Notes under the pieces: model-generated | What the model was told of the DNA's origin: nothing | Seen by the model: only the letters and a program-made list of their open reading frames with translations | The model's database searches: none | Shown: positions 11,056 through 36,952 of the stretch, piece after piece | How positions within the stretch are numbered: position 1 is the first letter of the stretch | Layout: every line of letters starts with the position of its first letter | Program-made: the position numbers and the translations under genes | Virus record (IMG/VR): IMGVR_UViG_3300011008_000003 | DNA from: a virus | Taxonomy: Duplodnaviria > Heunggongvirae > Uroviricota > Caudoviricetes | Strand: one strand, 5' to 3' | Length of the DNA: 64,000 bases

Positions 11056-11144
11056 TCGTTGAGGTAGCTGGAGTCGAACCAGCGGTGTGTCATTAGCCGT
11101 ACAGGATTCAAAGTCCCGCGCCCTCGCCACTGAGCTATACCTCA
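11056..11144 (-). tRNA. tRNA-Gln(UUG), long variable arm
   Basis: Cloverleaf, loop CT-TTG-AA, GTTCGAC T-loop. Confidence 0.85.
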
Positions 11145-11345
11145 ATATTGACTTTTTGACACGTACTAAGTCTAAAAGCGCCTCGGCTACAAAGGTGAAC
11201 GGAGTATTGTGCCTTGTATGAAGAAGCCGCATCAGTTGTCCGTTGCTATCAAGGACTTCTTCAATTCGCCATACTGCCGATTTAGGATGTCGGCATCTTC
11301 CGATATGCAGACGAGGTTTGTACCTTTTACCTCCAAGCATGACTT

Positions 11346-11423
11346 TAGTACTCCTGTCTGGACTTGAACCAGAAACCTATCGTTTAGGAAACGACCACTC
11401 TAATCCATTTGAGCTACAAGAGC
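11346..11423 (-). tRNA. tRNA-Arg(CCU)
   Basis: Cloverleaf, loop TT-CCT-AA. Confidence 0.85.
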
Positions 11424-12107
11424 TTAATTTGATAATTGTTGTATTCTAATAGTTTGTTTTAATCTATAAATTTCAGTTTCTCTGTCTTCTAATGAAAGTT
11501 TTTGCCAATCAGACCAACGAATTCTTTTTAATAATCTCCATCCTAAATTAATTAAATTTTCAGTACGTATTTTATCATGTAAAATACCAGTTTTTGTATA
11601 ATGCTGTTCACCATCTACTTCAATATATACTTTAATATCAGGCCAAGCATAATCTAAAAAATATCTATCTACATGATATTGTTTTTCCGCATTAGTAAAT
11701 ATTTCATTAAAATATTGTTCTGCATATGATTTCCGTTTTTCTCGTGCTGTTGTATATCTCGATATATTTTTATAATTTTCTTTTTGAACAATAGAAATTT
11801 GTTTACGTGTTTCAATCGTTTGATAATGTTTATATGCGGCTTCTGGTAATGTGCCATTTAAATAATGTTCATGTCTAGTTTCTGTATATTTAGCAACACG
11901 TAAATCATTATCTTTTGTTAATCCTTTATTCCATGCTTTATGTCCTTTTCTGGGTTTATATTTTCCTTTTTCACGATTTTCATGTAATATTTTTAAACAT
12001 CTATCATCTTTATTAGGATTTAATTTACACAAACGTTCATGATTTCGTAATGAATTTGCATTTTTGCATATTTTATTGCAATATTTACATACATAATCTT
12101 GTTTCAT
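11424..12107 (-). mobile_element. Free-standing homing-type endonuclease (Zn finger plus DUF559/Vsr-like nuclease) inside tRNA operon 1
   Basis: CKYC..HERLC, WNKGLTK, YFLDYAW...IEVDGEQH; AT-rich, inserted between tRNAs. Confidence 0.7.
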
Positions 12108-12139
12108 ATTTTATTTATTTGGTTTATTAGCATCGCTTT

Positions 12140-12221
12140 TAGTCCACGGGGTTGGAGTTGAACCAACACATAGAACCTTATAAGAGCCCCTGCCTGATAC
12201 CAATCGGCTTATTGCCCGTGG
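12140..12221 (-). tRNA. tRNA-Ile(UAU)
   Basis: Loop CT-TAT-AA. Confidence 0.75.
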
Positions 12222-12225
12222 ATAA

Positions 12226-12307
12226 TAGTGGACTTGGCCGGATTCGAACCGTGCGACTCCCGTATTAAAAGTACGGTACTCTAAAATGCCTGCTGAGTTA
12301 CAAGTCC
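12226..12307 (-). tRNA. tRNA-Lys(UUU)
   Basis: Loop CT-TTT-AA. Confidence 0.8.
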
Positions 12308-12312
12308 AAAAA

Positions 12313-12395
12313 TAGTACACTAGGCGGGCTTCGAACCCGCATTTGCAGCTCCAGTTACGGCTAACGGATTAGAAGTCCGACCCGACTACTAGTGT
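12313..12395 (-). tRNA. Atypical tRNA-Arg(UCU), reduced D arm and long variable arm
   Basis: Loop CT-TCT-AA, T arm and acceptor stem intact. Confidence 0.6.
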
Positions 12396-12398
12396 ATT

Positions 12399-12474
12399 TC
12401 GTGGACCTATCCGGACTTGAACCGGAATCCGAAGATTAAAAGTCTCCTCGTCTAACCAATTGACATATAGATCC
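12399..12474 (-). tRNA. tRNA-Lys(UUU)
   Basis: Loop CT-TTT-AA. Confidence 0.85.
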
Positions 12475-12480
12475 AAAGTA

Positions 12481-12556
12481 ATTGAGGTGGAGAGATTCGA
12501 ACTCCCGAATGCATGGGTCAGAACCATGTGCCTTGAACCAGCTTGGCTACGCCTCA
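12481..12556 (-). tRNA. tRNA-Gln(CUG)
   Basis: Loop TT-CTG-AC. Confidence 0.85.
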
Positions 12557-12562
12557 GTATAT

Positions 12563-12595
12563 AAAAAAACAGTTCCCGTATTGCTACAGGAACTG
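12563..12595 (-). terminator. Attenuator terminator, tRNA operon 1
   Basis: CAGTTCCTGTA-GCAA-TACGGGAACTG followed by T7. Confidence 0.85.
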
Positions 12596-12626
12596 AAATA
12601 ATTGAATAAGGTAAACTCTTACGCTA

Positions 12627-12704
12627 TCATTCGTTTCCCATAGCAAAACACACAGCTATTTGCTGTTTTCTTATCTGTTTTACTTGTTTAACGAATTGCT
12701 TCAT
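12627..12704 (-). CDS. Leader peptide 1, MKQFVKQVKQIRKQQIAVCFAMGNE
   Basis: AAAGG RBS; CAA/CAG, AAA, ATA, AGA codons match downstream tRNAs. Confidence 0.85.
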   Translation of the reverse strand: MKQFVKQVKQIRKQQIAVCFAMGNE

Positions 12705-12796
12705 TTTCTTTAACCTTTATAATTATATATAACAGTTGTTTGTTAATTTTCGCTTTTTAATATAGTAAATTTTTCTCTAGTTGTAAACCCTAAAAA

Positions 12797-13021
12797 TTAT
12801 TTTTTATCAAAATATTTTTCTACATCGTTATTTTCATAGTATTGTGCAGGCTGCTCAGTAAAATGATCAACGATTCCTACTAGCACAAAAACTACAACGA
12901 TAAATGCAAGGAAGAAAACAGCAGCCATAGCGCCCGGAGCCAAAAAGCTACCGACGATTGAATCCGGCGAATTGCCTGCGTACTGTGCCGCCAAAATCTG
13001 TGCTCTTGTCGCGTTATCCAT
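12797..13021 (-). CDS. Small membrane protein
   Basis: Single hydrophobic segment. Confidence 0.55.
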   Translation of the reverse strand: MDNATRAQILAAQYAGNSPDSIVGSFLAPGAMAAVFFLAFIVVVFVLVGIVDHFTEQPAQYYENNDVEKYFDKK

Positions 13022-13033
13022 ATTTTATATATT

Positions 13034-13240
13034 AAAAAGTCCCGTAATTAATCATACAAATTAATACGGGACATGATTTATATCACACAAGCACGCCGAC
13101 GTCACCCTATCCGTAGAGGTCGAGTCCGTGAATCTCAGCGAAGGGTGTAACCCGTCCTTCGCCGCACTATTATACACACGTAATTGCTATCCCTAGCCGG
13201 CACCTTACTGGACCGTGTACATGCTTATGTTTTATGTCTT
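13034..13240 (-). ncRNA. Candidate stand-alone sRNA of about 200 nt
   Basis: Own promoter (TTTACA..TACTAT), closing helix, internal hairpins, terminator GTCCCGTA..TACGGGAC plus T tract, no ORF. Confidence 0.5.
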
Positions 13241-13317
13241 TAATATAGTAAAATAGAAAAGACTTGTAAACCCCCTTTATATAAAAAATATGAGGCGATA
13301 TTTATCGTCTCATATCT

Positions 13318-13412
13318 TAGAAGAGGTGGTAGGATTCGAACCCACGGTCCGGGATGATTACCGAATCACCGGAGTTCAAATCCGGCACCATAAACCACTC
13401 GGTCACACCTCC
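13318..13412 (-). tRNA. tRNA-Ser(UGA)
   Basis: Loop TT-TGA-AC, long variable arm. Confidence 0.85.
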
Positions 13413-13420
13413 ATAATTTT

Positions 13421-13506
13421 TAGCCGAGGATGAGAGGCTCGAACTCCCATGCAGTTTCCCACGTCCGCTTTCTAGGCGGGTGCACTACCAATTGTGCGTA
13501 TCCTCG
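13421..13506 (-). tRNA. tRNA-Ser(AGA)
   Basis: Loop CT-AGA-AA, long variable arm. Confidence 0.8.
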
Positions 13507-13687
13507 AAAATTCCATAATATATTATTCCCTGAGCGCCGCGAAATATTAGTGTAATATCTGTATCTCTCTTTCAGTCTCGAAGACGATTTCTCAGTAATA
13601 TACGGCGTAATTCGCAATCACCCATTACGCTTGTATATTCGAAGTTAACACCGTTGCGCCATGTTAACTTATACACTCTATATTATG

Positions 13688-13764
13688 TAGTCCCGGAGGT
13701 TGGGCTCGAACCAACGACCTTTTGATTATGATTCAAACGCTCTAACCAGCTGAGCTACTCCGGG
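13688..13764 (-). tRNA. tRNA-Met or Ile2 (CAU)
   Basis: Loop AT-CAT-AA. Confidence 0.8.
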
Positions 13765-13769
13765 ATGGT

Positions 13770-13832
13770 AATAGCGGGAAGTAAATTACCGATTTTAAGT
13801 CTGTTTTTTAATAGGAACTTCCATATGCTATT
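13770..13832 (-). ncRNA. GUUCCUAU scaffold RNA carrying a Leu(UAA)-like anticodon stem-loop
   Basis: AGCA-NN-stem-GTTCCTATT...GA-CTTAAAA-TC...TAC-stem-CGCT. Confidence 0.6.
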
Positions 13833-13840
13833 AATTTCTT

Positions 13841-13932
13841 TTAGCGGGATGTAATTTGCCTTTCGGCTTTCGGATTTGAACCGAATCAAGGCCTGACGGC
13901 CTATCATCCATAATAGGAACATCCTTTGCTAA
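13841..13932 (-). ncRNA. GUUCCUAU scaffold RNA carrying a T-arm-like hairpin
   Basis: Same scaffold; insert includes TTCGG-TTCAAAT-CCGAA. Confidence 0.6.
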
Positions 13933-13935
13933 ACT

Positions 13936-14024
13936 TAGTAGCAGGGGCTGGATTCGAACCAGCGTGGACCTTTCAGTGCTCTAGGGTATGAACCTAGCGA
14001 GCTCGACCTCTACTCGACCCTGCG
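13936..14024 (-). tRNA. tRNA-Met(CAU), long variable arm
   Basis: Loop TT-CAT-AC. Confidence 0.8.
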
Positions 14025-14033
14025 ATAATTTTT

Positions 14034-14173
14034 TAGTAGGCGGCCTTGGATTCGAACCCCGGCAAGTCTCTCGTCCTAAACTTCGTGTTTTCTCGCGACC
14101 TAGCACGAAGGTCTGAGAGCGTTCTCTCTGCTGTGATTGCTGATGCAATCCCGTTCCGTTTGAACTATCGCCC
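14034..14173 (-). ncRNA. tRNA-like RNA with large multi-hairpin insert and no clear anticodon
   Basis: Acceptor-like ends GGGCG/CGCCT and GGTTCGAATCC T-loop, about 140 nt. Confidence 0.5.
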
Positions 14174-14398
14174 ATAATAAACTTTGTTTCGGTTTTTACC
14201 GAAGATTCCGAAAAACTCCAGCGGACTGCCGCCTTTTTACCTCTAGCTTTAAACACGTCCACTGTTTTAAGGCCGCAACCTTTTTCGCACAGTGTCTCAA
14301 GCGAACTAATTGGTAGCAGATTGCCCTCTCCTCAGTCATTCCTAGGAAACCTTGGAGGACAAGAATAATCCAATGATGATCAGTCATTATCTGCCTTT

Positions 14399-14488
14399 TA
14401 GTGCTAGCTAAGGGAGTCGAACCCCTGATGTTAACTCATAAGAGACGTGATCTACAGTCACGCGCAATCGCCACTCTGCCAAACTAGC
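14399..14488 (-). tRNA. tRNA-Tyr(GUA)
   Basis: Loop CT-GTA-GA. Confidence 0.85.
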
Positions 14489-14505
14489 ATAAGCACACAA
14501 ATTTT

Positions 14506-14592
14506 TATGACAGCTGTTGGACTCGAACCAACGAAAGCCCGTTAGGGCGGGAGGGTTACAGCCTCCAGGAATTGCCGCTATCCGAAACTGCC
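14506..14592 (-). tRNA. tRNA-Tyr(GUA)
   Basis: Loop CT-GTA-AC. Confidence 0.85.
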
Positions 14593-14669
14593 GAATTTCT
14601 CGGACTTTCACCGAGCGTTTATCCATTCTATCCTATACAGCGTTTGCCTCAAGGGACTGGACAATCAGT

Positions 14670-14702
14670 AAAAAAGAAAAGCCGCAGATTGCGCTGCGAC
14701 TT
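14670..14702 (-). terminator. Attenuator terminator, tRNA operon 2
   Basis: AAGTCGCAG-CGCAAT-CTGCGGCTT followed by T-rich tract. Confidence 0.8.
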
Positions 14703-14727
14703 AATAAAGTTTTATAATAAAACCCTA

Positions 14728-14814
14728 CTAGTCGCGACACCCCATATAATACATGGAATAACCGAACATCGAGCTCGGAACTAATGACCATGAATATGAA
14801 TAAGAGTGCAACAT
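14728..14814 (-). CDS. Leader peptide 2, MLHSYSYSWSLVPSSMFGYSMYYMGCRD
   Basis: AAGGA RBS; rich in Ser(TCN), Tyr, Met. Confidence 0.85.
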   Translation of the reverse strand: MLHSYSYSWSLVPSSMFGYSMYYMGCRD

Positions 14815-14922
14815 AATTTTTCCTTTTATATTATATATAAAAACTTTTTTATGTTTTTCGTTTTTACATACGTAAATATAGTAAATATTTTTCTCTTTGT
14901 AAACCCCTAAAATAAAAATTTT

Positions 14923-15231
14923 TTATGGTCCTGTATTTGTTGAAACAATTGCTGGTACGTATGGACAATAAATAATTCCTCTCGATTGTTTCTTCAGTTT
15001 CCGTGCTTGTTTTTTCGTCAATATTTTTGGCGGAGGCGGATTAATGAATTTTCTTTCCCATTCATAATATTCATTTCTTAAGCGTACACGTTCTGCTTTC
15101 GGTAATCCATTAAATGCACGCTCAGTTGGCGTATGCGGCTGGTCATAGGCTAAAAAATAATGGCGCATAATAAATGTACCGCTAGAACCGACAATAAAAA
15201 ATGTTTCATTAGCAAAGAAATCCTTTTTCAT
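14923..15231 (-). CDS. Hypothetical protein
   Basis: ORF downstream of tRNA-like RNA. Confidence 0.5.
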   Translation of the reverse strand: MKKDFFANETFFIVGSSGTFIMRHYFLAYDQPHTPTERAFNGLPKAERVRLRNEYYEWERKFINPPPPKILTKKQARKLKKQSRGIIYCPYVPAIVSTNTGP

Positions 15232-15272
15232 TTTTATAAGGACTCTCTCTGCTTGTAATTCAGTTGAAATCA

Positions 15273-15387
15273 TAGGACGATACTGCGGAATTGAACCGCC
15301 AGACACCATATCTACACCGACTCGAACGGCCACTCACCAAGAGAACACGGAATTGAACCGTTTTCAGCACCATTACTAAGTATCGCC
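15273..15387 (-). ncRNA. tRNA-like RNA with three T-loop hairpins
   Basis: Acceptor GGCGATAC/GTATCGTC; ACGG-TTCAATT-CCGT, GCCG-TTCGAGT-CGGT, GCGG-TTCAATT-CCGC; own promoter. Confidence 0.6.
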
Positions 15388-15431
15388 AATTATAATATAG
15401 AAAAAGGATTGATATTTGTCAACCCTTTATT

Positions 15432-15454
15432 TAGCGGTGCTGGAAGGATTCGAA
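15432..15454 (-). pseudogene. 3' remnant of a tRNA (T-loop plus acceptor strand)
   Basis: TTCGAATCCTTCCAGCACCGCTA abutting the endonuclease stop codon. Confidence 0.5.
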
Positions 15455-15455
15455 T

Positions 15456-16469
15456 TTATTTTTCAAATTTTCTTCTAAAATATTTTCCTTCAAAATCTTT
15501 TTTAAAACGTTCTAAGGTGTCTTCAATAATTCTTTTTGTATAACCTGTTTCTTTTTCAACTTTTCCAACCCATCCAAATTTTTGTAAATCAATACCACAA
15601 TTTAAAATAAGATTCTTACGTTCTATCCAAATTTCTTCTGATATAATATTTGGATTACCTTTACCTGATTTATCTTTTGGATATAATGATTCTTTTTTAA
15701 TTTTTGGTTTCTTTTTTAATTTTCTTATTTTTATATTAGGATATTGTTCTTGAAGTATTTTTATTTCTTCTAAATTTTTTAATTTATCTACTTTATATAA
15801 TAAATTATCTTTTTCTGAATAACGCCAAAATTCACAGTTAAGTTTTTCGATAATATATGCTTGCCTACACTTATCACGTAATATTCCTTTTATTTGTGTA
15901 TGTTTAGATTGTTTTTCATCATATTCAAAAACAATATTTAACACTTTATCATAACCATCGACATGATAAGGTCCTACTTTATATTCGCCGCCATTCATAG
16001 CGTGCTGTAAATGCCAATTATTTTTTATATTTAGTTCATCAATAAATTTACATGCTTTTTCATTATAATTACATTGGCAATTAATTATATTTTTACGTTC
16101 CAGCATTTTTTCTGCAAGTTTAGCCCTAGATTCAGGTGTATGTGGTTTACTAATACCTTTTAATTCACCAGAAGCGTATTTTCTTTTTATTGTTTCTGCA
16201 GATTTACGTTTGCTGTCAATATTAATTGTTTTTCCTAATGAATCTTTTGGTAATTTAGTTTTTTCTTCGCAATCCTTATAATGCTTATATAATTTTCGTC
16301 GTGAATAAAATATTTGATTGCAATATTGGCAAGTCCATTCTTTATATTTTGTTTTAAAACATTTTTCCGGATGCATTATATGCATATGTTCATATAATGA
16401 CATTTTTGTATCAAATACATTATTACAATAACTACATTTCCATTTATTTATTTTTATATTCGAACCCAT
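15456..16469 (-). mobile_element. Free-standing homing-type endonuclease (two Zn fingers, NUMOD3-like, PD-(D/E)XK-like)
   Basis: CSYC..H..H, CQYC..H..C, KPHTPESRAKL, VDGYD...VFEYDE; AT-rich. Confidence 0.7.
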
Positions 16470-16509: not shown

Positions 16510-16601
16510 TAACCGAAGGTACAGGGTTCGAACCTGTGTGAGACCTTTGACAGCCTCGGAAGTTTAGCAAACTTCTGCAATTACCATTCTGCCAACCTTC
16601 G
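16510..16601 (-). tRNA. tRNA-Ser(GCU)
   Basis: Loop TT-GCT-AA, long variable arm. Confidence 0.85.
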
Positions 16602-16604
16602 TTA

Positions 16605-16693
16605 TAGTCCCTTAGGGGAGACTCGAACTCCCACGGAATTTAATCCATCAGATTCTAAGTCTGACGCGTATTAACCATTTTCGCCACACAGGG
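16605..16693 (-). tRNA. tRNA-Leu(UAG)
   Basis: Loop CT-TAG-AA. Confidence 0.85.
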
Positions 16694-16699
16694 ATATAT

Positions 16700-16791
16700 T
16701 ATCGGTCTGGAGGGATTCGAACCCACAATCCGTATTTATCTCGGCTGCCGGGTTTGAGCCGACACTGTATACCATTTCCAAGCACAGACCG
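16700..16791 (-). tRNA. tRNA-Leu(CAA)
   Basis: Loop CT-CAA-AC. Confidence 0.85.
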
Positions 16792-16794
16792 GTT

Positions 16795-16881
16795 TATCGT
16801 CAAAGTGGGACTCGAACCCACACGTCCTTTCGGACACGAGACTCTCATTCTCGCGAGGCTACCAGATTACTCCATCTGACG
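16795..16881 (-). tRNA. tRNA-Leu(GAG)
   Basis: Loop AT-GAG-AG. Confidence 0.8.
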
Positions 16882-16885
16882 TTAT

Positions 16886-16969
16886 TATCGATACGAAGGG
16901 ACTCGCACCCTTAATCCATTTCTGGCATCACCCTCTCAAGATGACATGTATACATTCCATCACGTATCG
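16886..16969 (-). tRNA. tRNA-Leu(GAG)
   Basis: Loop TT-GAG-AG, T-loop GTGCGAGT. Confidence 0.75.
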
Positions 16970-16970
16970 T

Positions 16971-17056
16971 TATCTGGCTGGAGAGACTTGCACTCTCATG
17001 GAGTTACCCCCGGCACGGTTTAAGCATGCTATGTCTTCTAATTTCATCACAACCAG
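16971..17056 (-). tRNA. tRNA-Leu(UAA)
   Basis: Loop CT-TAA-AC. Confidence 0.75.
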
Positions 17057-17066
17057 TAAATTAGTT

Positions 17067-17142
17067 TAGAGCTGATAGTAGGAATCGAACCTACTCATAG
17101 AAAGTTTTGCAGACCCCTCCGTTCCCACTTCGGCATATCAGC
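17067..17142 (-). tRNA. tRNA-Cys(GCA)
   Basis: Loop CT-GCA-AA. Confidence 0.8.
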
Positions 17143-17154
17143 ATATTAAAAATT

Positions 17155-17233
17155 TATCCACAGGGTGAGAATCGAACTCACAGACTCACGAGCCTCTGAA
17201 GCCCGCCGCTTTGCCAAGTTTGCGTACCTGTAG
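17155..17233 (-). tRNA. tRNA-Leu(CAG), short variable arm
   Basis: Loop TT-CAG-AG. Confidence 0.75.
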
Positions 17234-17245
17234 TAACTTATATTT

Positions 17246-17322
17246 TAGCACCCCGGTAAGGATTCGAACCCTAATCAGCTGGGTTGGAGCCAGCCATGCT
17301 TAAACCATTACACCACCGAGAT
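17246..17322 (-). tRNA. tRNA-Trp(CCA)
   Basis: Loop CT-CCA-AC. Confidence 0.85.
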
Positions 17323-17324: not shown

Positions 17325-17355
17325 AAAAAAGGTCCCTACTTTTCGTAGGAACCTT
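17325..17355 (-). terminator. Attenuator terminator, tRNA operon 3
   Basis: AAGGTTCCTAC-GAAAA-GTAGGGACCTT followed by T tract. Confidence 0.85.
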
Positions 17356-17383: not shown

Positions 17384-17476
17384 TTATTGGTTTGTTACCT
17401 TGTCCCTACTGTGTACTACGAAACACCAGCTAAGCAAGCTGAGGAGTAGTAAACTAGTGAGACAAACCTTTTTCAT
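17384..17476 (-). CDS. Leader peptide 3, MKKVCLTSLLLLSLLSWCFVVHSRDKVTNQ
   Basis: AAAGGA RBS; Leu, Ser(AGY), Trp, Cys codons match downstream tRNAs. Confidence 0.85.
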   Translation of the reverse strand: MKKVCLTSLLLLSLLSWCFVVHSRDKVTNQ

Positions 17477-21025: not shown

Positions 21026-21101
21026 TATCCCAAGGCCGGAACTCGAATCCGAACTAACAGAATCACAATCTGCTGTGCTAGCCAATTACACCACCGCGGG
21101 G
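21026..21101 (-). tRNA. tRNA-His(GUG)
   Basis: Loop TT-GTG-AT. Confidence 0.8.
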
Positions 21102-21107
21102 ATGATT

Positions 21108-21183
21108 TAGAGCCCTATGCCGGGTTCGAACCGGCGCCACCTGCTTGGAAGGCAGAAATGCTAAGCCACTACACCAATAGGAC
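21108..21183 (-). tRNA. tRNA-Gly(UCC)
   Basis: Loop CT-TCC-AA. Confidence 0.85.
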
Positions 21184-21189
21184 ATATTT

Positions 21190-21266
21190 TAGAGCCCTAG
21201 ACGGAATTCGAATCCGTAAACCTTCTCCATGGCAAGGAGACATTCTACCAGTTGAACTACTAGGAC
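21190..21266 (-). tRNA. tRNA-Gly(GCC)
   Basis: Loop TT-GCC-AT. Confidence 0.85.
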
Positions 21267-21269
21267 ATT

Positions 21270-21345
21270 TCGAGCGATAAATGGGACTCGAACCCACAAC
21301 CTATTCCATGGCAAGGAATCGCTCTACCAGTTGAGCTACTACCGC
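21270..21345 (-). tRNA. tRNA-Gly(GCC)
   Basis: Loop TT-GCC-AT. Confidence 0.85.
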
Positions 21346-21533
21346 ATAACCTAATTTTTTATCTTCCCGGTGTCGGACACGAGAAATTAGTAAAACTCCC
21401 ACCGCATAGTTCATGCCAGCGACTGCTTTCTTGAGGACAAGAACCGTGCCCTGTCAGCTTTTTATACCTAATGGTTCTCTGACGAAACATAGCTAGAGCT
21501 CATACCGTAGCTAAATAAGTATGAGATAGATTT

Positions 21534-21609
21534 TAGTGCCACTACCTGGATTCGAACCAGGACCCGCTGATTAAGAGTCAGCTCGACTAGGCCATTATCA
21601 TATAGAGGC
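21534..21609 (-). tRNA. tRNA-Lys(CUU)
   Basis: Loop CT-CTT-AA. Confidence 0.8.
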
Positions 21610-21616
21610 AAAATTT

Positions 21617-21692
21617 TCGTACCCCAGGAAGGACTCGAACCTTCAACCCACTGATTAAGAGTCAGCTGCGCTACCAATTGCGCCACTGAGGC
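21617..21692 (-). tRNA. tRNA-Lys(CUU)
   Basis: Loop CT-CTT-AA. Confidence 0.9.
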
Positions 21693-21693
21693 A

Positions 21694-21772
21694 TAGTGCA
21701 CCCGACAGGCTTCGAACCTGTAACCGCCGGCTTCGTAGGCCGATGCTCTAAATCCAGTTGAGCTACGGGTGC
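21694..21772 (-). tRNA. tRNA-Arg(ACG)
   Basis: Loop CT-ACG-AA. Confidence 0.9.
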
Positions 21773-21780
21773 AAATTTGT

Positions 21781-21857
21781 TAGCGATCATGGTGGGATTC
21801 GAACCCACGAAAACTGGTTAGACAGACCAGCGCCCTAGACCACTAGGCGACACGACC
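21781..21857 (-). tRNA. tRNA-Asp(GUC)
   Basis: Loop CT-GTC-TA. Confidence 0.85.
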
Positions 21858-21862
21858 AAATT

Positions 21863-21918
21863 AATAGCGAGAAGTAATAATACAGATTTGCAGTCTAATA
21901 GGAACTTCATATGCTATT
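21863..21918 (-). ncRNA. GUUCCUAU scaffold RNA carrying a Cys(GCA)-like anticodon stem-loop
   Basis: Scaffold with TAGA-CTGCAAA-TCTG insert. Confidence 0.6.
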
Positions 21919-21992
21919 TAGCGGTCTCAACGGGTCACGATCCCGTACCTCCAGCGTGACAAGCTGGTGTCCATCCATTAAACGATGAGACC
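21919..21992 (-). tRNA. tRNA-Asp(GUC)
   Basis: Loop TT-GTC-AC. Confidence 0.8.
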
Positions 21993-21996: not shown

Positions 21997-22027
21997 AAAA
22001 AAGATTCCTGTGAGTTGCACAGGAATC
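21997..22027 (-). terminator. Attenuator terminator, tRNA operon 4
   Basis: GATTCCTGTG-CAACT-CACAGGAATC followed by T6. Confidence 0.9.
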
Positions 22028-22053: not shown

Positions 22054-22155
22054 CTAGATGACCCTGTGCTTGTGTCGATCCTTATCATGCTTACCGAAAC
22101 CTCGTCCGTCGCGGCGAGTCTTGCAATCATGAATGTCAACTACAAACTGAGTCAT
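22054..22155 (-). CDS. Leader peptide 4, MTQFVVDIHDCKTRRDGRGFGKHDKDRHKHRVI
   Basis: AAAGG RBS; Asp, His, Lys(AAG), Arg(CGN), Gly codons match downstream tRNAs. Confidence 0.85.
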   Translation of the reverse strand: MTQFVVDIHDCKTRRDGRGFGKHDKDRHKHRVI

Positions 22156-22208: not shown

Positions 22209-22327
22209 AACAGCGGGCAGTAACTGGCAACAAGAGTAGGACTCGAACCTACGACCTTTCACCTTGCGGTGAGTGCTCTAACCAACTGAGCTACCTCGTT
22301 AATTTTATAGGAACCGCGTATGCTGTT
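22209..22327 (-). ncRNA. GUUCCUAU scaffold enclosing a complete anticodon-less tRNA mimic (22225-22300)
   Basis: D arm, T arm, acceptor with encoded CCA; anticodon loop replaced by a GCAA tetraloop. Confidence 0.65.
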
Positions 22328-30602: not shown

Positions 30603-30688
30603 TAGTCTGCGACCCTGGACTTGAACCAGGACAAAGCAATGTCTCTGCCTTATCAGAGCAGCGTGTTAACCAATTACACCAGACGCAG
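30603..30688 (-). tRNA. tRNA-Ile(GAU), long variable arm
   Basis: Loop CT-GAT-AA. Confidence 0.8.
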
Positions 30689-30696
30689 ATATATTT

Positions 30697-30781
30697 TAGT
30701 CGGCATACCTAGACTCGAACTAGGACAAGCAATGTCTCTGCCTTATCAGAGCAGCGTGTTAACCAATTACACTATATGCCG
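30697..30781 (-). tRNA. tRNA-Ile(GAU), long variable arm
   Basis: Loop CT-GAT-AA; core nearly identical to its neighbour. Confidence 0.8.
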
Positions 30782-30787
30782 ATAATT

Positions 30788-30865
30788 TATCTCCCCTCTT
30801 GGATTCGAACCAAGGTTTTGCTTGCTTGTAAGGCAAGTGCCATAACCAGGCTAGGCGAAGGAGAG
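30788..30865 (-). tRNA. tRNA-Val(UAC)
   Basis: Loop CT-TAC-AA. Confidence 0.85.
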
Positions 30866-30866
30866 T

Positions 30867-30944
30867 TAGTACTCGATAAAGGATTCGAACCTATGACTTA
30901 CGCTTAGTCGAAGCGTCACTCTGAACCAACTGAGTTAATCGAGT
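30867..30944 (-). tRNA. tRNA-Val(GAC)
   Basis: Loop TC-GAC-TA. Confidence 0.8.
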
Positions 30945-30945
30945 A

Positions 30946-31020
30946 TAGTAGCGGCGTCGGGAATCGAACCCGAATGCCAGGATTGAAGGTCCCGTGAACT
31001 AACCATTATTCTACGTCGCC
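30946..31020 (-). tRNA. tRNA-Glu(UUC)
   Basis: Loop CC-TTC-AA. Confidence 0.8.
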
Positions 31021-31026
31021 ATATTT

Positions 31027-31102
31027 TAGTAGTCCTATACAGATTCGAACTGTAGTAACTTGGCTGAGAACCAAGTGGCCTTGACCGCTAGCCGATAGAA
31101 CC
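31027..31102 (-). tRNA. tRNA-Glu(CUC)
   Basis: Loop TT-CTC-AG. Confidence 0.85.
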
Positions 31103-31106
31103 ATAT

Positions 31107-31184
31107 TAGTGCCCCCGGCAGGAATCGAACCTGCGACGCTTGGATCTTCAGTCCAACGCTCTACCAAAACTGAGCTACAGAGGC
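31107..31184 (-). tRNA. tRNA-Phe(GAA)
   Basis: Loop CT-GAA-GA. Confidence 0.9.
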
Positions 31185-31185
31185 A

Positions 31186-31262
31186 TATTACCAGGCTCGG
31201 AATCGAACCGAGAATCTTTTGTCCTTCCGAACAAACGCTCTTACCATTTGAGCTAACCCAGC
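31186..31262 (-). tRNA. Atypical tRNA, anticodon undetermined (8-nt loop or GGAA tetraloop)
   Basis: Normal D and T arms; TTTGT-TCGGAAGG-ACAAA. Confidence 0.55.
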
Positions 31263-31263
31263 A

Positions 31264-31341
31264 TAGTGGAGGCAGCTGGAATTGAACCAACTTAGAGAGG
31301 AACATTCTATGCAAAGATTGCGGAAAGTAACCTTTGCCCCC
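31264..31341 (-). tRNA. Atypical Ala-type tRNA-like RNA
   Basis: Acceptor GGGGGCA/TGCCTCC-A with G3:U70; T arm present, D and anticodon arms irregular. Confidence 0.45.
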
Positions 31342-31343
31342 AT

Positions 31344-31420
31344 TAGTGGATCCAGTGGTATTCGAAACCACAACCTTCGGTGTGCAAAACCGACGCTCTG
31401 CCAAATTGAGCTATGAACCC
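31344..31420 (-). tRNA. tRNA-Ala(UGC)
   Basis: Loop TT-TGC-AC. Confidence 0.85.
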
Positions 31421-31426
31421 ATATTT

Positions 31427-31504
31427 TCGTGGACCTGACGAGACTCGAACTCGTAAACCTTCTGCTTGCAAAGCAGTTGCGCTACCAAATTGCGCCACAA
31501 GCCC
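31427..31504 (-). tRNA. tRNA-Ala(UGC)
   Basis: Loop TT-TGC-AA. Confidence 0.85.
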
Positions 31505-31552
31505 AAAAATAAAACTGACCTTACTCATCTCAACGCGTACTATTGACTTTCG

Positions 31553-31627
31553 GTTAGCGCATACGGGATTCGAACCCGTGACCAGCGGCCTTCACACCGC
31601 TTGTTCTACCGCCGAACAAAATGCGTT
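31553..31627 (-). tRNA. tRNA-Phe(GAA), divergent
   Basis: GTGAAG in anticodon loop, T arm GGTTCGAATCC. Confidence 0.6.
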
Positions 31628-31635
31628 ATCAGTTT

Positions 31636-31712
31636 TAGTGGACACATATGGGATTCGAACCCATGACGTTTTCCCTGCCAGGGAAACATTCTACCAACTG
31701 AATTAATGGCCC
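31636..31712 (-). tRNA. tRNA-Ala(GGC)
   Basis: Loop CT-GGC-AG. Confidence 0.8.
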
Positions 31713-31720
31713 ATGATTTT

Positions 31721-31797
31721 TAGTAGCGCTGTCGGGACTTGAACCCGAATTTCCGACTTGAAAGGCCGGTGAACTAAACCAGTTATTCGACAGCGCC
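31721..31797 (-). tRNA. tRNA-Glu(UUC)
   Basis: Loop CT-TTC-AA. Confidence 0.85.
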
Positions 31798-31806
31798 ATA
31801 GTTTGT

Positions 31807-31883
31807 TCGTGGACAAGACGGAATTCGAATCCGTGACCTCCGCATTGCAGGTGCGGCGTTCTACCAAACTGAACTACAAGCCC
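31807..31883 (-). tRNA. tRNA-Ala(UGC)
   Basis: Loop CC-TGC-AA. Confidence 0.8.
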
Positions 31884-31887
31884 ATAT

Positions 31888-31963
31888 TAGTACTCCGTCC
31901 CGGATTCGAACCGGGGTTATCCGATAGAAAGTCGGATGGCTTAAACCGCTGGCCGAACGGAGC
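31888..31963 (-). tRNA. tRNA-Glu(UUC)
   Basis: Loop CT-TTC-TA. Confidence 0.85.
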
Positions 31964-31971
31964 ATATTTTA

Positions 31972-32047
31972 TAGTGCCAAGTTCCGGAGTCGAACCGGAT
32001 TTCTGGGATTTTCAGTCCCGTCCATTCCCACGATTGGATGCCATGGC
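31972..32047 (-). tRNA. tRNA-Phe(GAA)
   Basis: Loop CT-GAA-AA. Confidence 0.8.
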
Positions 32048-32049: not shown

Positions 32050-32080
32050 AAAAGAAAGGTTCCTGTTGTGCACAGGAACC
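32050..32080 (-). terminator. Attenuator terminator, tRNA operon 5
   Basis: GGTTCCTGT-GCACA-ACAGGAACC followed by TTTCTTTT. Confidence 0.85.
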
Positions 32081-32110: not shown

Positions 32111-32218
32111 TTACTTGAACCTGTGCACTGAATTGTCAATCGCAAATACACGTTCTGCAAATTCTGCAATACGTTCTGCTGCGACCGCGATGAATTCAAT
32201 GTTAAAGTTCTTGTTCAT
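32111..32218 (-). CDS. Leader peptide 5, MNKNFNIEFIAVAAERIAEFAERVFAIDNSVHRFK
   Basis: AAAGG RBS; Phe, Glu, Ala, Val, Ile(ATY) codons match downstream tRNAs. Confidence 0.85.
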   Translation of the reverse strand: MNKNFNIEFIAVAAERIAEFAERVFAIDNSVHRFK

Positions 32219-32398
32219 TTTGTTACCTTTTATATTATATATAAAAATGTTTTTCCTGTTTTCGCAAAATAGATTCGGCCAATGGACTCCATCCAAAGTT
32301 TTACGTTAGCGCTGCACCGAATCATCTGATGCATCAGTTATGTTTAAAATATAGTAAAAAGTTTTTGGTTTGTCAACCCTCTTTTTAAAATATTTTTT

Positions 32399-32517
32399 TA
32401 GGCGGCGAGACTGGACTCGAACCAGCAACCCAAAGTACCCATTAAATAGGAATCATCGGTGCTAGAAAGCGGATAATAAAATATAAACTTTTGCTCTACC
32501 ATTGAGCTACCCGCCGC
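32399..32517 (-). ncRNA. tRNA body whose anticodon loop is replaced by a circularly permuted scaffold motif
   Basis: Canonical D and T arms; insert TTATCCGCT-TTCT-AGCACCGATGATTCCTATT. Confidence 0.6.
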
Positions 32518-32522
32518 ATATT

Positions 32523-32587
32523 GTTAAAGCGGAATGTAAGTAAACAATAAAGGAAGTTTTTGAATAGGAACATTCATTTGCTTTAAC
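32523..32587 (-). ncRNA. GUUCCUAU scaffold RNA with unstructured insert
   Basis: AGCA-AAT-GAATGTTCCTATT...TACATTC-CGCT. Confidence 0.55.
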
Positions 32588-32635
32588 GGTTGTAAATATA
32601 GTAAAGATTGTTTGGTTTGTCAACCCCCTTTTTAA

Positions 32636-33242
32636 TTAAAATGCGTTAAAGAATTTTCGCACTTTATCAATCCAGGTAGGAAGCGTCCAACGCTGTTCAA
32701 TCTTTCGGCCATCAGGCAAGATGGTCGTTTTATAATAGGTCTTGTAATCCCAAGTTCTATGATCGTCATAATGGATTTCAGCATTATTTTCTTCATCATA
32801 CTGGCGATAACTATCAGACACATAGTTTTGATTTCCTGTATGCGGATAATAAAAATTATGATATTCACGTTCGTAAATAACACGATTCTTGTCATCATAA
32901 GTATAATATGTAAGAGACACGCTTTCGTCAGAACGGTTTTCATGCTTCATGTAGAAAACATGCTTAATACAGCGGTTCTTGCTGTCATATTCATTAAATT
33001 CGCGATGTAATTCTGTAATATTATTATGTACCGACACGACATATTCATGAGACAACCGGTTATTGTTTTCGTCAAATGTCGAATTAGTATAGTATGAACC
33101 GCGTTCTTCGTCCGGATAAATAACCGATGAATGAATAACATTGCCGCGTTCATCCTTAACTTCGGTACGTGTATCGGCTGGGGATACAACCTTGACACCA
33201 TTATCGATAATCGTATAGCTTTTATCGGGATTCTGCCAGTTT
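32636..33242 (-). pseudogene. YD-repeat-like reading frame lacking a good start codon
   Basis: Frame stays open about 60 codons upstream of the TTG at 33055, with the same xDExxN repeats, back to a TAA. Confidence 0.45.
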
Positions 33243-33445
33243 TAAAATCAAAAAATGTGTCTGATACGATTCACGCACCTTTTTAGAAGACTTAGACACA
33301 AAATTTATAAGCCTTGAGCGGACACGTTACACCTAATACGCTCATAGCCGACCCATTCTCCAGGGTTAGGGCCTATATGTCAAGTATCATTGCGCATTGA
33401 TAATCCGGGTGAAGACTCCAGATACACATAGGACTTTTTAAAAGC

Positions 33446-33517
33446 TTGGCGGGAAGTAGACCTTCAAATTAGCATTTTGATGCTCTTACTGAGCTAAATA
33501 GGAACTTCCTATGCCAA
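33446..33517 (-). ncRNA. GUUCCUAU scaffold carrying D arm plus Ser(GCU) anticodon arm
   Basis: TAGCTCAGTAAGAGCA-TCAAA-ATGCTAA-TTTGA-AGGTC, ends CCCGCCA. Confidence 0.65.
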
Positions 33518-33624
33518 AATTTTTCGGATATTAATATTTTACTATCAATATCCGGTTAGAATCACCTACAATTTATAGTTTGACGAGAACCGAATTGTTT
33601 GCTTTCTAACTGATGTTTTCGTAC

Positions 33625-33696
33625 TAGCGGGTCTTGGACTCGAACCAAGGACTTTTGGGTTATGGGCCCAAATTGCTACCACTGCATCAACCCGCG
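33625..33696 (-). tRNA. Initiator-type tRNA-fMet(CAU)
   Basis: GGG/CCC anticodon stem, unpaired C1. Confidence 0.8.
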
Positions 33697-33865
33697 TCAA
33701 AATAAACTCAAAAATATGGTAAGTGGCCGACACTGTTCAAGACACGCATTCAGTTCCTCGTGCACTAGGCAGAACTCTGGAATTTACTTAGTGTCGGCCT
33801 TAAGGCACACTTACCGTACCTGCAGTCTTTTCGTTTTAAGTAGAAAGAAAATATATGTAAAAATA

Positions 33866-33977
33866 AACTCAGTTGCTTTAAAGTAGAAGAACCTGAAATA
33901 ACTCGGCTGCTTTGAAGTAGAAGAGCTTTGAAATAACTCAGTTGCTTTGAAGTAGAAGAACCTGAAATAACTCAGTT
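33866..33977. repeat. About 3.3 tandem copies of a 34-35 nt unit
   Basis: AACTCAGTTGCTTTGAAGTAGAAGAACCTGAAAT repeated with no spacers. Confidence 0.85.
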
Positions 33978-34132
33978 TTTTGTGGAAACCTTGAAAAACC
34001 ATTTTCAAACACTCTGCCGGAATCCCGATTCTCCACCGGCCATGACGTCTATCAACTGCCCATTCTATCGGTCGACTTCTTATAGGGTACAAACTCCGTC
34101 ATCTAGCAATTTATTGATCGTCTAGCTATATC

Positions 34133-34870
34133 TTATATTAATTAAAAACTGCTTAATGGAACACTTCCGGACTTATCTATTTATATGCAACCAAGGATCC
34201 TGTCCTAAAAATGCAGCGTATAAGGCTTTTTAACCGATATAGGGGCACATGTTCTGTACTGGAACCAGCCCACGTACATATCGTCCACAAGCAGTTTTTA
34301 ATTAACATAATACTCTCTATACTCCGCCTGATATAGATTCAGTGCTTAACAGGTTCTCAATAGGAGCTACCTATACAAAAGGCTACAAACCATTTGCCTA
34401 ACATATACTTTAAATATGTCCAGTTGTTGAACCCGTCGGGCGTTATAGGTTCCGGGCGATAAACACAGCACGTTACCGGGACTTCAGAGAAAGCATTCAA
34501 TGTGTGTTCATTGATTTTCTCACGCACTTAAGTAAAACACGTTACAGTCCATATGCTTACAGGCATCCTAATTACAAGGACCGATTAAGAAGTACAACTG
34601 GTGGTTAACCCAGAATTTCTCTTCGCGCACTCTTATTTCAAGTGGCCTCACGTGGCATATTTACAGAGCCAATACTACTCCTTTGCGACCATCATTCTTA
34701 AATCCATAATTCGCAAAGTCAGATTCCTCATCCCAGAGTTTTCCCCATCTGGGTTAGCCCGCTAGCATGAACATGAATGGTGCAACACGGGTTCTCCTCA
34801 CATATAGACTATACTCAATTTCGTTCTTTCAATCTACTGAAACACTCGCTGGTGTTTCAATCATTTACGT
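34133..34870 (-). ncRNA. Large structured ncRNA candidate(s)
   Basis: Promoter at about 34875-34904 then over 700 nt without a credible ORF and with many hairpins. Confidence 0.55.
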
Positions 34871-34926
34871 CTTATAATATAGTAAATGTTCTTGTGTTCG
34901 TCAACCCTTTTTTATAAAAAAATTTT

Positions 34927-35457
34927 TTATGCCAGGATTATAAGCTCTGCAAGTCTGCGACATGGTTCAGGAATATCCTTACGCTTCAGAAGCATTTCAC
35001 AGACATTCTGATACATTCTCTTCTTTGCATTTTCCTTTGGTTGGTCCCAAGAATTATAAACCATATCGGCAAGCTTAATCAACAAAGCATCCTTCGAAAT
35101 CGAACACAGCTTTTCGGTCATATATTCGGTCTTACCGAGTTGGTCAATGATATGACGGTTATTTGTCAATTCCAAAACCAGTTCTGCTACTTCTTCGCTA
35201 CCAGAAATGACTGCGATTTCTTCATAAGACGTATCAGTATCTTCCAAAAGGTCATGACCGAAGGCGGCGTTAATCTGGTCGATTGTTCCACCATATTTCT
35301 TGACAAGCCAAGCGACTCCGCGAGGATGAACGAAATACGGCATTCCGCTGCCCTTACGAGCCGCATGTGCATGCCTACCCTTCGCAAAGTAATACATGGC
35401 TCGACATTCTACAGGAAAATCCTGCGATTTGGATTTCTTAAACATTGCGCTAAACAT
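34927..35457 (-). CDS. Small alarmone hydrolase-like HD protein (RelA/SpoT HD, Mesh1-like)
   Basis: H...RK.SG.PY.VHP, HDLLEDT, LT, IKLAD..N. Confidence 0.85.
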   Translation of the reverse strand: MFSAMFKKSKSQDFPVECRAMYYFAKGRHAHAARKGSGMPYFVHPRGVAWLVKKYGGTIDQINAAFGHDLLEDTDTSYEEIAVISGSEEVAELVLELTNNRHIIDQLGKTEYMTEKLCSISKDALLIKLADMVYNSWDQPKENAKKRMYQNVCEMLLKRKDIPEPCRRLAELIILA

Positions 35458-35690
35458 TAATTGCTCCTTGGTTATATAAAACAATATAGAAAAGGGCTGA
35501 CGTTCTGTCAACCCTTTTTCATAAAATAAACGGCGGGAGATTCATTTAGGTGATAAAGTAGCTATCTCTAACACCCATCGCAATTAGACATCAGCACACT
35601 ATCATATGTACACTCAAATAGCATACTGTAATAATCAAAGAAAAACCCTAAGAAACGGTCATGCGATGTATTGTTACCATTAGATGGTTT

Positions 35691-35766
35691 TAGCGCTGGT
35701 GGAGGGATCCGAACCCCCGACCGGCTGATTACAAATCAGCTGCTCTACCTGCTGAGCTACACCAGC
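35691..35766 (-). tRNA. tRNA-Thr(UGU)
   Basis: Loop TT-TGT-AA. Confidence 0.9.
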
Positions 35767-35993
35767 AAAAGGTGATATATATGGTGATTAACCCACTAAC
35801 GGACTATATCTGCCGGATAAGGTATGTACTAACGCCTCGTTACCTCTATCAGAACCATCGCTTCGTGATGTAAGGCGAATCAAAACTTGGGTTCCTTACA
35901 CGCTTTTGGAAATCACCCACGAAGAATAAGTCTCCATTGTCTGCATGAAATCCCACTTTCATGTATTTACTGTTGTATGACTTTAGACTATTT

Positions 35994-36069
35994 TATCGGA
36001 GTAGCCAGATTCGAACTGACGACATTCTGCTCCCAAAGCAGACGCTCTACCAGACTGAGCTACACTCCG
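35994..36069 (-). tRNA. tRNA-Pro(UGG)
   Basis: Loop TT-TGG-GA. Confidence 0.9.
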
Positions 36070-36077
36070 GAAATTTT

Positions 36078-36160
36078 TAGCTGTTCCACCTGGACTCGAA
36101 CCAGGGACCAGGGACCAAGCGATTAACAGTCGCTCGCTCTACCAACTGAGCTATGGAACA
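36078..36160 (-). tRNA. tRNA-Asn(GUU) with 7-nt duplication in the variable region
   Basis: Loop CT-GTT-AA; GGTCCCT twice. Confidence 0.8.
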
Positions 36161-36220
36161 ATCTTGTATTAACAAATATAGCAATTAATGTTCTACTTGT
36201 CAACCCATAAAATAATTTTT

Positions 36221-36299
36221 TCGCGCCTGGTGAGAGATTCGAACTCCCGACCGGATGATTACTAAACATCTGCTCTAAAGCCAGCTGAGCTAACCAGGC
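36221..36299 (-). tRNA. tRNA-Thr(AGU)
   Basis: Loop TT-AGT-AA. Confidence 0.8.
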
Positions 36300-36306
36300 A
36301 AAAATT

Positions 36307-36376
36307 TGGCGGGTCGTAAAACCTTTTGATTACCAATCAACTGCTCATCTGAGCTAAATAGGAACGACCTATGCCA
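36307..36376 (-). ncRNA. GUUCCUAU scaffold carrying D arm plus Thr(GGU) anticodon arm
   Basis: TAGCTCAGATGAGCA-GTTGA-TTGGTAA-TCAAA-AGGTT, ends CCCGCCA. Confidence 0.65.
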
Positions 36377-36377
36377 T

Positions 36378-36462
36378 TATCAGGGTAGCAGGATTCGAAC
36401 CTGCGATGTCACGAGGACGCTAGCTCCCGAAGCTAGTGGCAAACCAACCTGCCGCTACCCTG
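36378..36462 (-). tRNA. tRNA-Pro(CGG), long variable arm
   Basis: Loop TT-CGG-GA. Confidence 0.75.
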
Positions 36463-36473
36463 TTTTAATTTGT

Positions 36474-36549
36474 TCGTCAGAGTGGCTGGGCTCGAACCAG
36501 CGACCCCTCGCATCCTAGGCGAGCTCTCTACCAACTGAGTTACACTCTG
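36474..36549 (-). tRNA. tRNA-Pro(AGG)
   Basis: Loop CT-AGG-AT. Confidence 0.8.
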
Positions 36550-36603
36550 ATAAAGTCACTACTTGGACAACTGGCGGAAAGTACGCACGCTCCGTGAGTG
36601 ACT

Positions 36604-36681
36604 TAGCTCCAAGGGAAGGATTCGAACCTCCGAAATCTGACACGTTAACAGCGTGCTGGCATACCGCTTGCCGACCCTGGA
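36604..36681 (-). tRNA. tRNA-Asn(GUU)
   Basis: Loop CT-GTT-AA. Confidence 0.85.
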
Positions 36682-36687
36682 ATAAAT

Positions 36688-36763
36688 TAGCTGGGAAGGA
36701 GGGATTCGAACCCCCAACATAGTGGTTAACAGCCACCCGTTCTACCATTAGAACTACGACCCA
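36688..36763 (-). tRNA. tRNA-Asn(GUU)
   Basis: Loop CT-GTT-AA. Confidence 0.85.
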
Positions 36764-36769
36764 ATGTAT

Positions 36770-36808
36770 AAAAAAGAAATCCTGTATGGTTTCAATCATA
36801 CAGGACTT
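36770..36808 (-). terminator. Attenuator terminator, tRNA operon 6
   Basis: AAGTCCTGTATG-loop-CATACAGGATTT followed by CTTTTTT. Confidence 0.85.
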
Positions 36809-36835
36809 ATCAAAAAAATCGGTATATGAAGAAAC

Positions 36836-36898
36836 CTAATCCAAAAGCACTCCTGGATTCGTCGGATTAGTATTATTTGTGTTCTTCATAAAAGTCAT
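36836..36898 (-). CDS. Leader peptide 6, MTFMKNTNNTNPTNPGVLLD
   Basis: Asn, Thr, Pro codons match downstream tRNAs. Confidence 0.85.
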   Translation of the reverse strand: MTFMKNTNNTNPTNPGVLLD

Positions 36899-36952
36899 TT
36901 TCTTATCTCTTTATATTATATATAAAAGTTTTTTCCTGTTTTTCGCAAAAAT

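Follow-up and report, generated by a model that had tools for sequence, protein, structure and literature searches.

Six codon-matched leader reading frames with predicted attenuator switches ahead of the transfer RNA blocks of a large rumen phage

Why phages carry transfer RNA (tRNA) genes has been debated for more than 50 years (PMC10264068). The question takes a particular form in the window analysed here, i.e. the whole 64,000-nucleotide (nt) stretch of IMG/VR record IMGVR_UViG_3300011008_000003, which is part of a large T4-like phage from the rumen (it holds genes for a gp15-type tail sheath stabiliser and a terminase-like ATPase) and in which the stretch 11058-36763 has 52 tRNA genes by ARAGORN, every one on the minus strand. 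A sequence-only reading of the window had described six tRNA operons, each headed by a motif, a ribosome-binding site (RBS), a 20-35-codon open reading frame (ORF) and an intrinsic terminator, the ORF being enriched in the codons read by the tRNAs that follow. All six units are confirmed, element by element, and it is very probable that each block is gated by ribosome-mediated transcription attenuation that senses the decoding of the block's own codons. What such gates would be for, and what else the leaders could be doing, is considered in the following together with the evidence.

The six units, all on the minus strand, share one order of elements, namely a sigma70-type promoter, the motif TATATAAT, a purine-rich RBS, the leader ORF, a spacer, a hairpin with a U tract, and the tRNAs. 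In unit 1, typical of all six in its upstream region (12716-12789; -35 box at 12787, motif at 12729), leader 1 (12627-12704, 25 codons) is a candidate sensor of Gln, Lys (AAA), Ile (AUA) and Arg (AGA) codons, with an antiterminator strand at about 12620-12644; terminator 1 (12570-12595, followed by its U tract) precedes block 1 (11058-12556), which encodes Gln(CUG), two Lys(UUU), Arg(UCU) and Ile(UAU), an inserted 227-residue nuclease-like protein, then Arg(CCU) and Gln(UUG). Leader 2 (14728-14814, 28 codons; Ser (UCN), Tyr and Met; antiterminator strand about 14716-14739) and terminator 2 (14679-14702) head block 2 (13320-14592), with two Tyr, two Met(CAU), Ser(AGA) and Ser(UGA) tRNAs. Block 3 (16513-17322), with Trp, six Leu, Cys and Ser(GCU), follows leader 3 (17384-17476, 30 codons; Leu, Ser (AGY), Trp and Cys; antiterminator core 17402-17409) and terminator 3 (17329-17355), and block 4 (21028-21992), with two Asp, Arg(ACG), two Lys(CUU), three Gly and His, follows leader 4 (22054-22155, 33 codons; Asp, His, Lys (AAG), Arg (CGN) and Gly; core 22054-22069) and terminator 4 (22003-22027). 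Leader 5 (32111-32218, 35 codons; Phe, Glu, Ala, Val and Ile (AUY); core 32120-32128) and terminator 5 (32058-32080) lie ahead of block 5 (30605-32047), which holds Phe, Glu and Ala tRNAs in several copies each, some atypical, with two Val and two Ile(GAU). Finally, leader 6 (36836-36898, 20 codons; Asn, Thr and Pro), whose antiterminator strand begins at the stop codon (about 36822-36836), and terminator 6 (36778-36807) head block 6 (35693-36763), with two Asn, Pro(AGG), Pro(CGG) and Thr(AGU), an internal promoter at 36205, and then Asn, Pro(UGG) and Thr(UGU).

The -35 boxes and motifs of units 2-6 are at 14903 and 14837, 17566 and 17500, 22377 and 22178, 32376 and 32241, and 37057 and 36922, respectively. 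The motif at which the operons had been thought to begin is found at all six, with the sigma70-type promoter 60-200 nt further upstream in each. The terminators have a G+C stem with a U tract, their hairpins being of -12 to -17 kcal/mol and the regions having z-scores of -2.1 to -4.1. The tRNAs for Ile(UAU), Phe and Pro(CGG), Arg(UCU) and the second Lys(UUU) were added by relaxed scoring, Rfam and hand folding. Together, the six blocks do account for all 20 amino acids and, by standard wobble rules, leave CGG as the only sense codon unread.

Does the content of each leader follow that of its own block? With hand-checked anticodons, 93 of the 165 internal codons of the leaders have a decoding tRNA in the block that the leader heads (12/24, 14/27, 14/29, 20/32, 22/34 and 11/19 for leaders 1-6), when 12-29% is predicted from phage codon usage (binomial P from 3e-7 to 3e-5 per leader). 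When leaders and blocks are permuted, none of the other pairings among the 720 matches as well as the true one (the next best gives 73 matches, and the mean is 29), which also keeps first place with a fully automatic tRNA list (86/165). The automatic filter omits some true tRNAs and retains false ones, so that the pooled Fisher value was set aside in favour of hand-checked cases. Among 529 short ATG-initiated ORFs in the window, five of the leaders take the top five ranks for enrichment; leader 1 comes 12th, two of the tRNAs of its block, Ile(UAU) and Arg(UCU), being missed by default ARAGORN.

The match extends to synonymous codons, as the sequence-only reading had claimed. Four amino acids (Lys, Ile, Arg and Ser) have their tRNAs divided between two blocks, and 28 of 31 leader codons agree with the division. 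Lys is written AAA ahead of the UUU tRNAs and AAG ahead of the CUU ones; Ile is AUA where the anticodon is UAU and AUY where it is GAU; Arg is AGA where it is UCU and CGN where it is ACG; and Ser UCN is used ahead of block 2, AGY ahead of block 3. The three exceptions are codon 2 of leader 1, a codon midway through leader 2 and one in leader 4, within its pairing tail. Furthermore, the matched codons are concentrated in the body of the ORFs (74/111, versus 9/42 in the last seven codons; P 5e-7), and three relatives are similar (e.g. 73/98 versus 10/35 and 70/96 versus 9/35), which is the geometry that a stall sensor needs.

A further indication comes from what happens to the leaders when tRNAs change block. 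Among the close relatives are two rumen phages with complete IMG/VR genomes, G001 (424 kb) and G002 (416 kb), and parts of the region are also present in sheep and bovine gut sequencing runs. The motif search retrieved five leaders in each of G001, G002, G003 and G004; the complete genomes have five copies of the motif apiece, always at a leader, and in three related genomes the true leader-block pairing is the best of 120. The leaders and blocks covary, as the attenuation proposal had anticipated. In the window and in G002, the Cys tRNA belongs to the Leu block and the Leu leader contains two Cys codons; G001 and G004 have this tRNA in the Tyr block instead, with 3-4 Cys codons in the Tyr leader and none in the Leu leader. 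Gln(CUG) is found in block 1 of the window, whereas G002 has it in the Leu block and G001 and G004 have it in the Tyr block, each time with CAG codons in the matching leader; when it is gone from the Gln/Lys/Arg/Ile block, the Gln codons of that leader are CAA only. In G001, where Ile(GAU) is out of the Glu/Ala/Phe block, all four Ile codons have disappeared from the leader of that block and three have been added to the Tyr leader; in G001 and G004, Val(UAC) has shifted to the Asn block along with Val codons. G001 and G002 also have an extra cluster, overlooked by the motif search, of Arg(UCU), Gln(UUG), Lys(UUU) and Ile(UAU), the leader of which has Arg, Gln, Lys and Ile codons of the types AGA, CAA, AAA and AUA (except codons 2-4 in G002) and is followed by a terminator.

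The sixth leaders of G001 and G002 are preceded by a T4-type late promoter sequence, TATAAATA, which suggests that the motif TATATAAT probably serves as a second promoter, of the late type. A 200-residue protein with a weak match to sigma region 2 is also encoded in each of these genomes.

Is it the peptide, rather than its translation, that matters? Among close leaders, 19 single-base changes are synonymous and 10 are not, when 22% synonymous would be expected without selection, an excess somewhat inflated by transition bias and RNA structure. This conservation of the peptides, with selection of the coding type, is what would be expected if they were functional small proteins, or if the leaders were trans-acting RNAs, with constitutive, leaky terminators setting the tRNA dose; moreover, trans roles are known for the peTrpL leader peptide (PMC7298713). 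Such an explanation is nonetheless highly improbable, since the composition of the peptides shifts exactly with tRNA content, the need to pair with the terminator arm constrains the last codons, and each of the 31 leaders compared, across all families, keeps 34-44 nt between its stop codon and the terminator loop. The antiterminator strand and both arms of the terminator have changed in concert within the Leu and Tyr families, so that both pairings are kept; these pairs were compared anchored on the 5' arm, the MAFFT alignments having the antiterminator strands out of register.

How the switch would operate was explored by folding the transcript as far as the loop of the terminator, the ribosome being represented by a 13-nt mask that begins with its A site and the co-transcriptional state cut before the terminator 3' arm being taken as the relevant one. 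With a ribosome on the control codons, the terminator 5' arm is predicted, in all six leaders, to be held in an antiterminator hairpin of -19 to -23 kcal/mol with an occupancy of 0.8-0.9; the arm is predicted to be released (antiterminator occupancy about 0) once the ribosome has reached the last 6-12 codons, in leader 6 only at the stop codon. In silico, therefore, the exclusive structures foreseen by the attenuation proposal are recovered. Its claim that a strand in the last codons pairs with the terminator 5' arm stands for leaders 1-5 and has to be amended for leader 6, where the strand pairs with the inner 5' arm and loop of the terminator and, as it starts at the stop codon, the predicted switch closes only there, to about 0.5. 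The leader ORFs fold better than codon-order shuffles (z from -1.5 to -4.0), and a 1:2 pause/protector fold, in which the antiterminator strand is protected in naked RNA, is clearly predicted for leader 3 alone.

In naked RNA, before the 3' arm appears, the antiterminator is predicted in four of the six leaders (0.79-1.0), so that loss of initiation alone could cause read-through. On this basis, the leaders might be thought to sense translation or its coupling in general, i.e. a ribosome being present or absent, with codon identity incidental. This is very unlikely, as it gives no account of the block-specific codon match, the synonymous splits or the codons that move with their tRNAs.

Codon-specific attenuation would, instead, work as follows. 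While RNA polymerase transcribes the leader, a ribosome would sample the speed at which the block's own codons are decoded. A fast ribosome would reach the last codons or the stop codon and cover the antiterminator strand, so that the terminator would form and transcription would stop before the tRNAs; at a slow matched codon, its tRNA being cut, scarce, unmodified or uncharged, the ribosome would stall upstream, the free strand would pair with the terminator 5' arm, and the polymerase would read into the very tRNAs that decode those codons. The result would be a negative feedback loop, and six such loops would tile the genetic code. We infer that the leaders are translated in vivo, that read-through is regulated, that the host polymerase is used with coupled translation, and that the natural trigger is tRNA loss. 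Rumen metatranscriptome contigs span leader, terminator and tRNAs of units 3 and 5, which speaks for their presence only and not for strand or level, the RNA runs having been used as assembled contigs without ranking by depth; a contig of run X4 that ends just past terminator 5 was not counted as evidence.

As to the signal, amino-acid starvation would also trip the switch; yet an extra tRNA is no cure for such starvation and synonymous codons are discriminated, which together point to tRNA shortage. We lean slightly towards a function in which the six attenuators poll nearly all sense codons at isoacceptor resolution and activate only the block that holds the missing tRNA, chiefly in answer to host anticodon nucleases and alongside repair by the RNA ligase RtcB, a gene for which (8496-9686, minus strand; phrog_1075, E 1e-129) lies just downstream of block 1. 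An anti-nuclease purpose, as opposed to starvation, missing modifications or gaps in host range, would fit with published work, in which phage tRNAs rescue infection from tRNA-cutting defences: the tRNA-Tyr of T5/SP15 counters retron-Eco7, and a tRNA-Lys counters an anticodon defence system (PMC11555353). The position of the ligase gene fits the same context of tRNA damage, by association only.

Several observations weigh against this picture and have to be set beside it. That each tRNA operon is headed by a leader is right for the six blocks but not for every tRNA: tRNA-Met 33625-33696, with initiator-like features, and a weak Ser(CGA) at 15275-15355 bypass the leaders, and the promoter at 36205, inside block 6, precedes its last Asn, Pro(UGG) and Thr(UGU). 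Relatives that kept the operons without codon-matched ORFs would tell against the proposal; their leaders are mostly matched, but G002 has one leaderless tRNA cluster, the leader of L166 retains Gln and Cys codons and that of L017 Ile and Val codons although their blocks are without those tRNAs (leaders may lag behind gene loss), and the Asn block of G001 has Met, Leu and Tyr tRNAs with no corresponding leader codons. The four genomes are kin and amount to about three independent arrangements. The sixth leaders of G001 and G002 are without a clear Shine-Dalgarno sequence, and for that of G001 the predicted switch is weak (about 0.5 to 0.4). In full-length equilibrium folding, the terminator is often favoured in many units whatever the position of the ribosome, and thus the switch model depends on the order of co-transcriptional folding; in a host with uncoupled transcription, it would require polymerase pausing.

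Among known systems, the mechanism is that of classical leader-peptide attenuation, and what differs is that tRNA genes are the regulated output. Attenuation by leader peptides is the mode of control of trpL and hisL, and the thrL and ilvGMEDA leaders are multivalent, as are these phage leaders. In the E. coli pheST attenuator (pheM) and the Streptomyces leuS leader, genes of the translation machinery are attenuated, the output being an aminoacyl-tRNA synthetase for one amino acid rather than tRNA arrays. The window units do not belong with the attenuators of biosynthesis or synthetase genes (trp, his, phe, thr, ilv, pheST), as the downstream genes are tRNAs: amino-acid operon attenuators regulate enzymes, whereas here, in a phage, the product itself would relieve the stall. 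Unlike the amino-acid operon leaders, moreover, each phage leader takes in 3-5 amino acids, synonymous codons are kept apart and the code is divided among six. In build, they resemble the E. coli pheL-pheA attenuator, which also combines a short ORF, an RBS and control codons with exclusive antiterminator and terminator structures switched by ribosome position (PMC3082878).

The nearest regulated tRNA array is controlled differently. This is the Anabaena trn L-array, a long operon of tRNAs that responds to impaired translation by induction and is co-regulated with rtcB, but it is repressed at initiation by TrcR at direct repeats over the -10 box, as one block and without codon specificity (PMC8421152, PMC10272220), and the words 'attenuat' and 'leader' are absent from PMC8421152; here there are six leader-headed units instead of a single operon, with rtcB adjoining block 1. 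The T5/SP15 tRNAs likewise replace host tRNAs destroyed by nucleases; they are expressed from a strong promoter, with no mention of attenuation (PMC11555353), whereas expression here is predicted to be conditional and codon-specific. Evasion through the anticodon loop has also been hypothesized for phage tRNAs (PMC10264068). A literature search that took in few subscription journals returned no description of leader-peptide attenuation on tRNA genes tiling the genetic code. If the proposal is correct, phage tRNAs would answer a shortage that arises in infection rather than a fixed codon bias, each leader would be a record of the codons monitored by the phage, and attenuation would reach from enzyme operons to tRNA genes as closed-loop control of the tRNA pool; as portable sensors of 150 nt, the leaders could also reveal which tRNA is cut by a defence nuclease.

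Could tRNA be sensed directly instead? The T-box riboswitch also reports tRNA status through a termination/antitermination switch, and differs in that it binds tRNA directly, translation not being involved. A T-box-like or protein-dependent switch, binding tRNA or a regulator with the ORFs as by-products, deserves mention since leaders 4, 5 and 6 are each preceded by a copy of a repeated structured RNA motif, twice with tRNA-like parts. It is, however, most improbable: Rfam gives no T-box or riboswitch match up to E 0.1 in 10000-38000, leaders 1-3 are without the repeated motif, and each leader presents 11-22 matched in-frame codons for several amino acids behind an RBS, with an excess of synonymous changes, rather than a single specifier codon.

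The repeated motif itself is found on the minus strand of the window at 36999, 36365, 33505, 32571, 22314, 21905, 13920 and 13818, three of these copies being those upstream of the leaders, and, on the same strand, in 6-11 copies in the tRNA regions of G001, G002, G004 and G005. It consists of a short stem, a 3-4-nt bulge, a 6-bp helix with covarying sides, the fixed word GTTCCTAT and a variable insert, often a tRNA fragment, and has no Rfam match. Three other unusual RNAs share the region, on the minus strand. A tRNA-shaped RNA with a GNRA tetraloop in place of the anticodon loop (22225-22300) lies between the sigma70-type promoter and leader 4, at the same position in G002, G004, L020, L028 and L034, and is possibly a decoy or scaffold. 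A tRNA-like RNA at 32402-32516 has intact acceptor, D and T arms and a 43-nt insert instead of the normal anticodon arm (Rfam tRNA, 49 bits). A 250-nt non-coding element at 34556-34800, in a 1.1-kb non-coding stretch before tRNA-Met, is 77-87% identical to stretches within the Tyr tRNA block of G004, L021 and L026 and has no Rfam match; it is a candidate new structured RNA. In G002, the anticodon loop of a tRNA-Ile(UAU) (L173:2585-2700) is apparently interrupted by an intron-like insert of about 25 nt. In addition, hairpins with a -35 box in the stem and a -10 box right after it, terminator-like and promoter-like together, are seen at 11054-11018, 15428-15394, 20239-20203, 29365, 29884 and 35513, several at the ends of tRNA blocks.

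Four of the tRNAs have A34, namely Ser AGA (13423-13506), Thr AGU (36223-36299), Pro AGG (36476-36549) and Arg ACG (21696-21772). In Ser AGA, Thr AGU and Pro AGG tRNAs, A34 is rare among bacteria, and wide reading would require A-to-I editing.

The host was also sought through RtcB. Its nearest matches (85% and 78% identity) are on L081 (JAFRFD010000099.1, from a Methanobrevibacter metagenome-assembled genome, MAG) and L082 (JAGCEE010000210.1, from a Clostridia MAG). As the Methanobrevibacter contig bears two phage leader units, both contigs are taken as probably misbinned phage DNA; the remaining best matches are from Bacillota, at 56-59% identity, too distant for host assignment. Cultured phages gave no match to the window except for one tRNA-like stretch, and neither an Atlas search nor pattern scans of metagenome contigs and genome contigs gave any match.

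With regard to neighbouring genes, a phosphohydrolase with an HD_4 domain, of the RelA/SpoT hydrolase type, is encoded directly after block 6 (34927-35457, minus strand) and is a possible alarmone hydrolase. The nuclease-like insert of block 1 (11424-12107, minus strand) is a zinc-finger protein with a DUF559/restriction-endonuclease-like domain; in L003, Arg(CCU) comes directly after Ile(UAU), without this gene between them. A second zinc-finger protein gene (15456-16469, minus strand) follows block 3, and neither gene is at the corresponding place in close relatives, as is the case with homing endonucleases.

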